This document shows, piece after piece, positions 49,583-50,722 of a stretch of 56,796 bases of DNA; position 1 is the stretch's first letter, and each line of letters starts with the position of its first letter. Made by a program: the position numbers and the translations under genes. Source of the stretch: a virus; the IMG/VR virus record IMGVR_UViG_3300042261_000652, positions 64,001 to 120,796 of that record; one strand, given 5' to 3'. The notes under the pieces were generated by a model that worked only from the letters and a program-made list of their open reading frames with translations, was not told the origin of the DNA and did no database searches.

Positions 49583-50722
49583 CTATGCCACTCCTTTCAA
49601 ATATGCGGCATAAAATGCTTTATTTCGGCCTAATTCGTGGCGATCTCCTCTCACATCTTTATAACTCCTCTTATATTCCCGTTTTGCGACATTCCAGTCT
49701 TTTCTAAACACAGAATCTACAAATTTTGGAAATGCATTCAATCCTCCCAAATTGAATGCAAAATCAGTCAACATTTCGACTTGATTTTGATTTATATGAA
49801 ACACAGGATCGCTTGGTTTTAGATTTAAATAAAATTTGGATTTGGGATCGGCGGGGTGTGAGCGAGCGTATGTTTGTGCTTTTTTAATATAATCAGCTAT
49901 CCACTTGTCGTGTGCTTTTGAAACAATATCACGGGATTTTTTCAAATCGTTTATTAGCAATGCCTCGGCTTCTTTTTCGGTTATACCCCTGATAAATTTA
50001 TGAAGTTCGTCGTTCGTTATTTTATGGCCATATGCAATCGTATCATTCCCACCTTCGGCTGATCTATGAGGATACCACCTTCCATTTTTAAATCCAACCT
50101 TAGTATTATTTTCTACACTTTTTATATAATTTAAAAAATTTGCAGAAATATCCATGTTCTGAATGGATGCGGGAGGGGCATCTGCTATTTCATCCAATCC
50201 GACCGAATTTCGCCGTTGTTTAGATATTTGTTTACACAACTGTAGTATGCGTTCTATCTTGGAACTGGCGTGTTTCAACAATTCTACCATTCCAAAATGT
50301 AGCGGCTCGGGCCATTCCCCATATTCTACCCATTCAGAGTCGTCATTTTCCCAATTGAGTCTAGGATGAAATTCGTGAGGTACAATTACAAGATAATTGT
50401 GATATTTAAAATTCGCTGCGGGGTCGTGGAAAGTCCATAGATAATTAACTTTGTATTGACCCGAAAATCCGGTTTCTTCCTCTACTTCTCGCTCTACAGT
50501 CTGAAGCGGATTTTCTCCTTCATCTATTTTTCCACCCCACGTACCCCAAGTGTTTGGTTCGAAATCTACGTTGTCACTTCGGTGAGCAAGGAGAATTCGC
50601 CCCGTGTCTTTGGCGATGAAGATACATCCAGCCGCTCCAAGACCAGTGTCCCAATATTCTCGGCAGGACATATTTTCATCATCTTCTTTAAAATATAATC
50701 TATAAGGTTGAGTTGTTAACAT
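49583..50722 (-). CDS. NUDIX hydrolase fused to a T4-lysozyme-like (GH24) domain; start re-set to the internal ATG 'MLTTQ'
   Basis: Nudix box 'GGKIDEGENPLQTVEREVEEETG'. Lysozyme-like 'EGGNDTIAYGHKITNDELHKFIRGITEKEAEALLINDL...EMLTDFAFNLGGLNAFPKFVDSVFRKDWNVA' matches T4 lysozyme 'EGYYTIGIGH...ITKDEAEKLFNQDV...[29 protein letters not shown]'. The track ORF start at 50863 would leave no space for the divergent promoter region. Confidence 0.55.
   Translation of the reverse strand: MLTTQPYRLYFKEDDENMSCREYWDTGLGAAGCIFIAKDTGRILLAHRSDNVDFEPNTWGTWGGKIDEGENPLQTVEREVEEETGFSGQYKVNYLWTFHDPAANFKYHNYLVIVPHEFHPRLNWENDDSEWVEYGEWPEPLHFGMVELLKHASSKIERILQLCKQISKQRRNSVGLDEIADAPPASIQNMDISANFLNYIKSVENNTKVGFKNGRWYPHRSAEGGNDTIAYGHKITNDELHKFIRGITEKEAEALLINDLKKSRDIVSKAHDKWIADYIKKAQTYARSHPADPKSKFYLNLKPSDPVFHINQNQVEMLTDFAFNLGGLNAFPKFVDSVFRKDWNVAKREYKRSYKDVRGDRHELGRNKAFYAAYLKGVA

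Follow-up and report, generated by a model that had tools for sequence, protein, structure and literature searches.

A Nudix–lysozyme fusion from an uncultured T4-related phage as a candidate head-packaged pro-protein

We describe a gene in a 56,796-nucleotide stretch of viral DNA (IMG/VR record IMGVR_UViG_3300042261_000652, positions 64,001 to 120,796; hereafter the window, in whose coordinates all positions are given) whose product is predicted, from sequence and structural modelling, to be a two-domain enzyme, with an N-terminal Nudix pyrophosphohydrolase joined to a C-terminal GH24 muramidase of the T4-lysozyme fold. We lean, with a little more than even confidence, towards the view that this fusion is packaged in the phage head as a precursor, from which processing would release the Nudix enzyme and the muramidase as separate proteins. 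The gene and its two enzymatic halves are laid out as follows.

49583–50722, minus strand: Nudix–GH24 fusion gene, 379 amino acids plus stop, ATG at 50722.
50297–50650, minus strand: Nudix-fold domain, about residues 25–142 (Pfam PF00293, 5.8e-17; phrog_1198, 7.7e-26; Foldseek).
50465–50533, minus strand: Nudix box, residues 64–86, GKIDEGENPLQTVEREVEEETGF, read directly against G-x5-E-x7-R-E-U-x-E-E-x-G-U.
49586–50167, minus strand: GH24 (T4-lysozyme-like) muramidase domain, residues 186–379 (Pfam PF00959, profile and fold searches).
49796–49912, minus strand: 39-residue helical insertion in the lysozyme domain, residues 271–309 (alignment A1), modelled as the extension of a long helix.
50111–50113, minus strand: codon of E204, at the end of helix 194–205; probable catalytic glutamate, equivalent to E11 of T4 lysozyme.

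A longer open reading frame (ORF; 49583–50863, minus strand) opens at a TTG codon and would encode 426 residues. Because each of the 18 full-length homologues (49–59% identity) starts at the residue equivalent to the ATG at 50722, and because the 47 codons upstream of it translate into a low-complexity hydrophobic stretch with no counterpart in any homologue, we take the gene to be 49583–50722 and, on this comparison, its ATG to be the true start. The initial annotation, made from the letters of the window alone, had proposed the same internal start with a 140-nt divergent region in front of it, a gene at the head of a minus-strand operon and a single-ORF fusion of a Nudix hydrolase to a lysozyme; the start is borne out by the homologues, the operon position holds, and the fusion is confirmed by Pfam matches on both halves, by profile and fold searches and by the ORF itself. 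The junction between the halves, which the annotation had flagged as a possible site of error, contains neither a stop nor a frameshift and full-length homologues (45–58% identity) are collinear across it, which rules out a frameshift or chimera at this point. That an error in sequencing or assembly merged separate Nudix and lysozyme genes is next to inconceivable. Separate genes are found naturally in contig L010, but some 45 independent metagenomic clusters from differing sources carry the same collinear fusion with its conserved linker, and the second gene of the split state has a full MIKLKALLE leader whereas the window junction has none. In the full-length AlphaFold2 (AF2) model, with a predicted local distance difference test score (pLDDT) of 89.4, the protein forms two compact domains. 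Between them lie a long helix (residues 143–173) and then a disordered linker (residues 178–187, pLDDT <50), so that the Nudix and GH24 halves are modelled as connected by a long basic helix and a flexible segment.

The Nudix box of the window protein (G64-KIDEG-E70-NPLQTVE-R78-E79-V-E-E82-E83-T-G85-F86) matches the consensus exactly, as first annotated, and G64, E70, R78, E79, E82 and E83 are invariant among the 16–19 homologues aligned. The Pfam NUDIX match scores 62.4 bits against a gathering cut-off of 21.1, the domain is modelled with pLDDT >90 over most of its length, and the top 50 PDB structures retrieved by Foldseek with the full-length model are all Nudix enzymes. The best cultured-phage matches to this half are from jumbo myoviruses (34–48% identity), and its nearest viral structures are the jumbo-phage Nudix proteins of BcepSaruman and phiRSL1; the T4-type NudE of phage IME08 stands at rank 50 among viral structures, below the jumbo-phage proteins. 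With T4 NudE itself BLASTP finds only weak similarity (26% identity, E 5e-5), and the 95% probability given by hhalign spans only 85 core columns. As for the substrate, for which the initial annotation had put forward a nucleotide sugar or an alarmone, all NCBIfam Nudix equivalogs, including any specific for nucleoside diphosphate (NDP)-sugars, scored far under their cut-offs, and sequence and fold searches of the PDB for a subtype returned generic MutT, Ap4A, NudC, Dcp2 and DIPP matches with no clear winner. A proline 15 residues after the Nudix box, which we take to be a hint of ADP-ribose pyrophosphatase activity, is present in the window protein and is not conserved across the family, and this candidate was dropped.

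The C-terminal half exceeds the Pfam cut-off for Phage_lysozyme (31.5 versus 22.3 bits, 2.6e-7), in agreement with its original reading as a GH24 enzyme. The match covers only positions 15–59 of the 125 in the profile because of the insertion at residues 271–309, which is present in the window protein and in three of the 18 aligned homologues (P0001, P0002 and P0004); homologues without it match positions 3–117. A family profile retrieved from the PDB sequences the GH24 muramidase 8b2s (2.8e-6), T4 lysozyme (about 6e-6), P22 lysozyme (6.8e-5) and also the T4 gp5 lysozyme, and hhalign of the family profile against T4 lysozyme (T4L, the product of e) gives a probability of 93.5%. The half aligns to T4L residues 22–135, and hhalign pairs ITEKEAEALLINDL with ITKDEAEKLFNQDV and FNLGG...DWNVA with FQMGE...RWDEA, reproducing both of the alignments that had first been drawn by hand. 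Since Nudix matches swamped the full-length fold search, the lysozyme domain was also modelled alone (pLDDT 94.2); its top PDB matches in Foldseek are T4L and 8b2s (probability 1.0, target-normalised template modelling score 0.45–0.57). BLASTP of the fusion against T4 e found no match. The closest cultured-phage matches to the lysozyme domain, at only 25–47% identity, include an annotated internal virion protein and baseplate hub or tail lysozymes.

One point of the initial annotation needs revision, namely the choice of E223, within a Glu-x8-(I/A)YGH pattern, as the catalytic residue. E223 (SAEGG) belongs to the beta-hairpin loop where T4L has D20 and E22; it aligns with E22 and not with D20, and T228 aligns with T4L T26; neither E223 nor T228 reaches 90% conservation. 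An acidic residue is found in the hairpin of every member read by eye, being E223 here or a nearby Asp in variants without E223. E204 (YIKSVEN; E19 in alignment A3), by contrast, hardly varies across the family and lies at the C-terminal end of the first helix in the models, and it is probably this residue that is catalytic. We assign it by position only, since E204 lies outside every profile alignment with T4L, P22 lysozyme or 8b2s; between it and the hairpin there are about 10 additional residues.

Our favoured reading starts from the company that the fusion keeps. The window holds a T4-type structural module, with a large terminase, a gp20-family portal, a gp21-family protease, a gp23-family capsid protein and gp13-like, gp14-like and gp15-like proteins (profile matches include Peptidase_S77 at 2.5e-21, Gp23 at 6.4e-73 and Portal_T4 at 1.5e-70). 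The fusion gene adjoins the gp13, gp14 and gp15 neck genes; it is divergent from the gp13-like gene and comes first in a long minus-strand operon, in which almost every product starts with MIKLKxLLxE. The features on which the argument for packaging and processing draws are these.

50684–50722, minus strand: N-terminal peptide of the fusion, residues 1–13, MLTTQPYRLYFKE (MLTTQPYRLYFKE13), followed by acidic DDEN; candidate capsid-targeting propeptide ending in F-K-E13.
50189–50197, minus strand: L176-D177-E178, candidate prohead-protease site in the disordered linker, right before IADAPPA.
13016–14749, plus strand: gp21-family prohead protease with an intein (Peptidase_S77, 2.5e-21; LAGLIDADG_3; Intein_splicing; phrog_207, 6.5e-44).
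12148, 24926 (minus), 33391, 33874, 36062 (minus), 41963 (minus), 43400 (minus), 44396 (minus), 45113 (minus), 46130 (minus), 47415 (minus), 48090 (minus), 48518 (minus) and 49126 (minus): leader-tagged genes with MIKLKxLLxE-type N-termini.
49126–49578, 48518–49129, 48090–48521 and 47415–48083, all minus strand: the four genes directly downstream in the operon of the fusion, each starting MIKL[KR]xL[LIV]x[ES].

At least 14 proteins of the window thus start with a leader of 9–12 residues of the MIKLKxLLxE type, mostly with Glu at residue 10; looser versions occur at 16510, 16830 and 34232, and an internal one at 42706 (minus strand). Judged by sequence, the set looks like a greatly expanded internal-protein arsenal. 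In T4 the leader of IPII and IPIII is MKTYQEFIAE, which the window leaders match in length, amphipathic pattern and terminal Glu. For targeting to the head, residues 1–10 of IPIII are enough (PMC9026906; PMC5694885), and T4 gp21 cuts after L/I-X-E, removing propeptides (PMC9026906). The N-terminal peptide of the fusion is disordered in the model (pLDDT 40–46) and is a candidate for a divergent aromatic variant of the MIKLKxLLxE leader. The motif Y[KR]xFFxE is found in 51 of 101 family N-termini, other members have bridging N-termini (MSLKLKQFFSE, MAFKLKHFFTE and MIKLIDLLEG), and a YKNFF-type peptide directly precedes stand-alone lysozymes (P0130, and P0148 with YKNFFVFE, the latter in the same genomic slot of contig L009).

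The region between the domains tells a similar story. E178 is at least 90% conserved in the homologue alignment, and in 45 of 46 lysozyme-domain relatives a [LIVMF]-x-E is found 1–6 residues ahead of (D)xPPA, regardless of whether a Nudix domain, a 2H domain, a coiled coil or a bare leader comes first. In contig L010, where the halves are separate genes, the Nudix protein starts MIKLKTLLE-TVFWGDAGAG and the lysozyme starts MIKLKALLE-DMTTPPPAIHQS (DMTTPPPAIHQ), so that each has its own canonical leader in the split state. A search with the lysozyme-domain profile found 112 further proteins of the lysozyme clade, 53 of which start with a MIKL leader. Each of these 53 has a [LIVMF]-x-E that ends near residue 10 (at 10 itself in 44) and is followed by I-M-D-A-x-P-P. 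The junction at L176-D177-E178 is therefore a candidate for a surviving leader motif, and it fits the specificity of gp21-type proteases.

A capsid-targeted pro-protein cut after E13 and E178 is suggested because the leaders match the T4 format and the same genome encodes a gp21-family protease. Beyond the domains and conserved motifs, which were read directly, we infer targeting, cleavage and ejection along the following lines. The N-terminal peptide MLTTQPYRLYFKE would act like a T4 capsid-targeting sequence (CTS) and bring the pro-protein into the scaffold core of the prohead, where the gp21-family protease would cut after the Glu of phi-x-E (phi being [LIVMF]), at F-K-E13 and L-D-E178. Cleavage would remove the leader and part a Nudix enzyme of about 19 kDa from a lysozyme of about 23 kDa starting IADAPPA. 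Both products would be stored in the mature head and ejected at infection with the other leader-tagged enzymes, which may include ART-like (ADP-ribosyltransferase-like) and ParB-like proteins and, in relatives, 2H/Acb1-like and CCA/poly(A)-polymerase-like ones. The lysozyme could then cut peptidoglycan locally during entry. T4 NudE.1 hydrolyses ADP-ribose, FAD, Ap3A, NAD and NAD-RNA caps (bioRxiv 10.1101/2024.04.04.588121), and by analogy the Nudix enzyme might hydrolyse NDP-X substrates such as ADP-ribose, NAD-derived signals, dinucleoside polyphosphates or NAD-RNA caps, which may aid host takeover or blunt host immunity. For NudE-like Nudix proteins encoded with a virion lysozyme, head packaging has already been predicted, with a role in countering immune signals derived from ADP-ribose (Iyer et al. 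2022, PMC9503650). The suggestion in the initial annotation of a virion-associated wall-degrading enzyme gains indirect support from the leader and the cleavage motif, although these point to packaging in the head and not to an enzyme of the tail tip.

Several observations weigh against head packaging. We infer packaging and cleavage in this lineage from sequence. A strict position-specific scoring matrix built from the 14 window leaders does not recognise the N-terminus of the fusion (9.2, versus 21–26 for true leaders), so that its leader is claimed through the family intermediates and not through its own sequence. The phi-x-E motif is short and frequent by chance, and it is only its positional conservation that argues for function. 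The stand-alone Nudix protein of phage CBB, encoded beside gp15, is not annotated 'structural' though several of its neighbours are. Head contents of contractile-tailed phages are thought to enter the cytoplasm, where a muramidase has no substrate, so that the access of an ejected lysozyme to the peptidoglycan is a weak point of this reading. Finally, the syntenic lysozyme of T4, e, is an unpackaged cytoplasmic endolysin that is also encoded directly upstream of CTS-bearing ip genes, and the position in the operon therefore cannot tell a packaged enzyme from an endolysin.

This last point leads to an alternative that we regard as unlikely but serious: that the fusion is the endolysin of the phage, a positional counterpart of T4 e joined to its NudE-like upstream neighbour, which would act from the cytoplasm and degrade the wall from within at lysis. 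The Nudix half would then do late nucleotide or cap housekeeping that tunes the timing of lysis, and the N-terminal peptide and linker motif would be evolutionary leftovers. The order nudE, e, ipIII, ipII on one strand of T4 is identical, and lysis is about 15 min late when T4 NudE.1 is catalytically dead, which ties Nudix activity to lysis (bioRxiv 10.1101/2024.04.04.588121). Exchange of GH24 for a SleB-type hydrolase behind the same Nudix is typical of modular endolysins, and the missing 'structural' label of the CBB protein is in keeping with such a role. The window, moreover, encodes no other clear peptidoglycan hydrolase, only a leader-tagged protein of 316 residues (36062–37012, minus strand) with a sub-threshold Amidase_6 match (E 0.037), which may itself be a second packaged wall hydrolase; yet the window is 57 kb of a probably much larger genome, so the absence of a second endolysin is uninformative. 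The endolysin explanation has difficulty with the split state, in which the Nudix and the lysozyme each bear a canonical leader, as do 53 of the 112 clade members, whereas T4 e has none. A relic would also hardly explain why phi-x-E and (D)xPPA are strictly conserved within a disordered linker. Among the called neighbours (genes of at least 100 residues at 40.8–56 kb), as in the fusion itself, no transmembrane-like segment was detected (maximum 19-residue hydropathy <1.6), and these neighbours include no holin or spanin candidate. The same Nudix, finally, is elsewhere joined to the toxin domain of an ADP-ribosyltransferase, a function other than lysis. Were the fusion an endolysin, it would be an ordinary modular lysin of little further interest.

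The distribution of relatives bears on these readings and on a further one. None of 50,697 deposited phage records covers at least 80% of the fusion, and only the Nudix half finds matches there, in jumbo myoviruses. That the fusion was unfamiliar from characterised phages, as the initial annotation had remarked, is thus correct for deposited genomes, but the architecture is not rare: about 45 clusters of metagenomic proteins have it, on contigs of up to 359 kb, and the JGI auto-annotation labels its homologues 'MutT/GH24'. The majority of them have three domains, Nudix, lysozyme and a C-terminal GNAT-like domain, the last of which is missing from the window protein and was not found elsewhere in the window by tblastn. 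In metagenomes the same Nudix has as partners GH24, a PF07486 SleB-type hydrolase, the ADP-ribosyltransferase toxin domain (P0111) or nothing but a GNAT-like domain (P0063); this same lysozyme, for its part, occurs in fusions with an Acb1-like 2H phosphoesterase domain (P0105 and P0145) as well as alone. This partner set is an effector-style domain repertoire and speaks for the packaged reading.

Such partners also allow us to weigh the possibility of a two-pronged destruction of the wall, implied by the nucleotide-sugar pyrophosphatase of the initial annotation, in which the Nudix would hydrolyse UDP-MurNAc-pentapeptide, UDP-GlcNAc or undecaprenyl-PP-linked intermediates while the muramidase cuts the polymer. 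The same Nudix is indeed linked to two unrelated wall hydrolases, GH24 and the SleB-type enzyme of PF07486, and Nudix enzymes as a class include NDP-sugar hydrolases (PMC9503650). However, this Nudix also occurs alone with a leader (L010), with the GNAT-like domain only and with the ADP-ribosyltransferase, and the lysozyme is found equally with the Acb1-like 2H domain or by itself, so the partners look interchangeable and not coupled by a pathway. As no NDP-sugar-specific Nudix model reaches its cut-off and the predicted cleavage would part the two halves, we consider this explanation improbable.

Fused and split states alternate at one genomic position. Contigs L003, L007, L009 and L010 (15–359 kb) share a layout in which gp15, gp14 and gp13 face a Nudix/lysozyme slot that is followed by leader-tagged genes, and their gp13 homologues (PF26809, Phage_T4_gp13) have the same divergent position beside it. 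The slot holds overlapping genes for a leader-Nudix (161 residues) and a leader-lysozyme (182 residues) in L010 (6519–7549), a lysozyme alone with an aromatic leader variant in L009 (7001–7576), and a leader-lysozyme-GNAT gene followed by a leader-tagged Acb1-like 2H phosphoesterase gene in L007 (6544–7982). It therefore presents an evolutionary series of split and fused states. The nearest deposited genomes by capsid protein are a 484-kb uncultured phage, Microcystis phage Mel-JY01, Flavobacterium phage immuto and Rhodothermus phage RM378. In immuto and Mel-JY01, the roughly 9 kb flanking the gp13 homologue on each side contain neither Nudix nor lysozyme genes, nor any with a MIKL-type leader. 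The 484-kb relative (L008, LR756508.1 187749–212972) has another recurring leader on several small proteins (M.LSERKLRRIVKEEI, MKLTQTKLQKLIKEEL) and two copies of a TnpB/transposase-like gene of about 430–440 residues (identified by eye), one directly upstream of gp13 and the other about 10 kb further upstream.

The surroundings of the fusion gene in the window include the following.

50723–50862: divergent intergenic region between the fusion gene and the gp13-like gene, 140 nt, containing ATATTTATA at 50796–50804 on the plus strand.
50863–52041, plus strand: gp13-like neck (head-completion) gene, divergent from the fusion gene (phrog_211).

The motif ATATTTATA is a candidate late promoter. 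It occurs in 14 exact copies in the window against 3.3 expected, among them those at 6276, 9548, 16495, 26130, 33375, 33858 and 50796 on the plus strand and at 25999 on the minus strand, and several copies lie in gene orientation upstream of, among others, the portal gene, the gp13-like gene and two leader-tagged genes. Its reverse complement includes what we take to be the T4 late-promoter box, TATAAATA. On the side of the fusion gene an 8/9 match, ATATTTATT, is found at 50772–50764 (minus strand), 41 nt before the ATG; it carries little weight, there being 109 one-mismatch matches in the window. Two of the downstream operon genes have weak Pfam matches to ParB_N and ART-PolyVal. The 222-residue leader-tagged protein encoded at 47415–48083 (MIKLKKLLLEKTLYHGTTVDN...) has roughly its first 45 residues in common with the N-terminus of a 761-residue leader-tagged protein of L007 (7979–10264) that resembles PolyA_pol/CCA-adding enzymes, and L003 encodes a comparable leader-tagged protein of 884 residues with another N-terminal sequence. 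The cargo packaged in this lineage may thus, on sequence, include a nucleotidyltransferase.

Further features of the module concern mobile elements and repeats. The portal gene (6322–9501, plus strand) has an intein with an HNH endonuclease. The large terminase gene (3244–6258, plus strand; 1004 residues) has about 460 residues inserted between the ATPase part and the nuclease part, with a weak endonuclease match; this insert is probably the third intein of the window, and a free-standing homing-endonuclease gene lies at 14803–16491. A gene of 137 residues on the opposite strand between the gp13-like and gp14-like genes (52029–52442, minus strand; phrog_22677 only) and an Endonuclease_7 gene in the gap between the gp13 and Nudix–lysozyme genes of L003 are likely mobile endonuclease insertions. 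At least eight tandem paralogous genes starting MK[IT]RNGFVSNSSSSSF occupy 19972–23626 (plus strand), and an ORF that leaves the end of the window (56299–56796, minus strand) starts with tandem peptide repeats of MQKSQKLRGLQEMHL.

The association of Nudix with lysozyme and the idea of head packaging are already known at the level of gene neighbourhoods (PMC9503650), as is the adjacency of nudE and e in T4. What appears to be new is the fused architecture within a T4-type leader system, the series of split and fused states, and the conserved leader-derived motif between the domains. In T4 the pairing of Nudix and lysozyme is one of neighbouring genes without an understood link, whereas the fusion and the doubly leadered split state argue for joint deployment; the phi-x-E/(D)xPPA junction, in turn, predicts two defined cleavage sites and two defined mature proteins. 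We place at about even the odds of a broader proposal, that uncultured giant T4-related phages make a muramidase and a Nudix enzyme as one capsid-targeted polyprotein cut at a leader-derived site, and pre-load the capsid with both and with at least 12 further leader-tagged enzymes. Should this be true, it would be the first time that a lysozyme and a Nudix enzyme are carried by a T4-type CTS system, the T4 nudE-e-ipIII-ipII cluster may descend from such an internal-protein cassette, and there would be a mechanistic lead on the unexplained lysis delay of T4 NudE.1 mutants. Confirmation would also widen T4-type capsid targeting from small anti-restriction proteins to a broad enzyme arsenal of giant phages, with the leader as a portable tag for cargo bound for very large capsids.

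Among known systems, the closest in gene order is T4 nudE (e.1)/e/ipIII/ipII, with a Nudix gene, a GH24 lysozyme gene and leader-tagged internal-protein genes in succession on one strand. Orthology to nudE and e is positional and not demonstrated by sequence, because BLASTP is weak to NudE and finds nothing in e, and the Nudix fold of the window protein is nearer to the stand-alone enzymes of jumbo phages than to T4-type NudE. T4 makes two proteins without a capsid-targeting leader; here there is one polypeptide, with a leader-like N-terminus and phi-x-E between its domains. We know of no packaged lysozyme or Nudix enzyme in T4. The T4 internal proteins proper (IPI, IPII, IPIII and Alt) resemble the system in their leader of about 10 residues ending in phi-x-E (MKTYQEFIAE versus MIKLKxLLxE or the candidate YRLYFKE here), in the presence of a gp21-family protease and a gp23 capsid in the same genome, in their clustered genes and in a candidate ART-like cargo, as with T4 Alt. 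They differ from the putative cargo here, a polyprotein of two enzymes in which an internal cleavage site is predicted.

The stand-alone Nudix proteins of jumbo myoviruses (BcepSaruman gp100, phiRSL1 and the CBB_232/GAP32 group) provide the best cultured matches to the Nudix half in both sequence and structure, and the CBB gene adjoins a gp15-like tail-sheath stabiliser as in the window, but they are single-domain proteins of 155–185 residues with no lysozyme. T7 gp16-type internal core (ejection) proteins are another kind of head-internal protein with a peptidoglycan-cleaving domain that is ejected at infection, and the 'internal virion protein' of Pantoea phage Nifs112 is among the matches to the lysozyme domain of the window; gp16-type proteins, however, belong to short-tailed phages and have a lytic transglycosylase in a very large channel-forming protein, with neither Nudix nor T4-type leader.

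Polyvalent proteins, finally, carry several effector domains on one polypeptide and are predicted to be processed into units and injected with the DNA (Iyer et al. 2017, PMC5512222). Their repertoire likewise holds lysozyme, PF07486 hydrolase, ART, ParB and 2H domains, and they too are encoded among late or virion genes. Classical members are large, with 2 to 15 domains, process themselves and have MuF, portal or zincin metallopeptidase domains as anchors, whereas Pfam found no MuF, portal or zincin-metallopeptidase domain in the fusion or its homologues, most effectors here are separate small proteins with a T4-type leader, and processing would be by the prohead protease. On its sequence features, then, the fusion is best described as a small T4-style version of the polyvalent effectors and not as a classical polyvalent protein.

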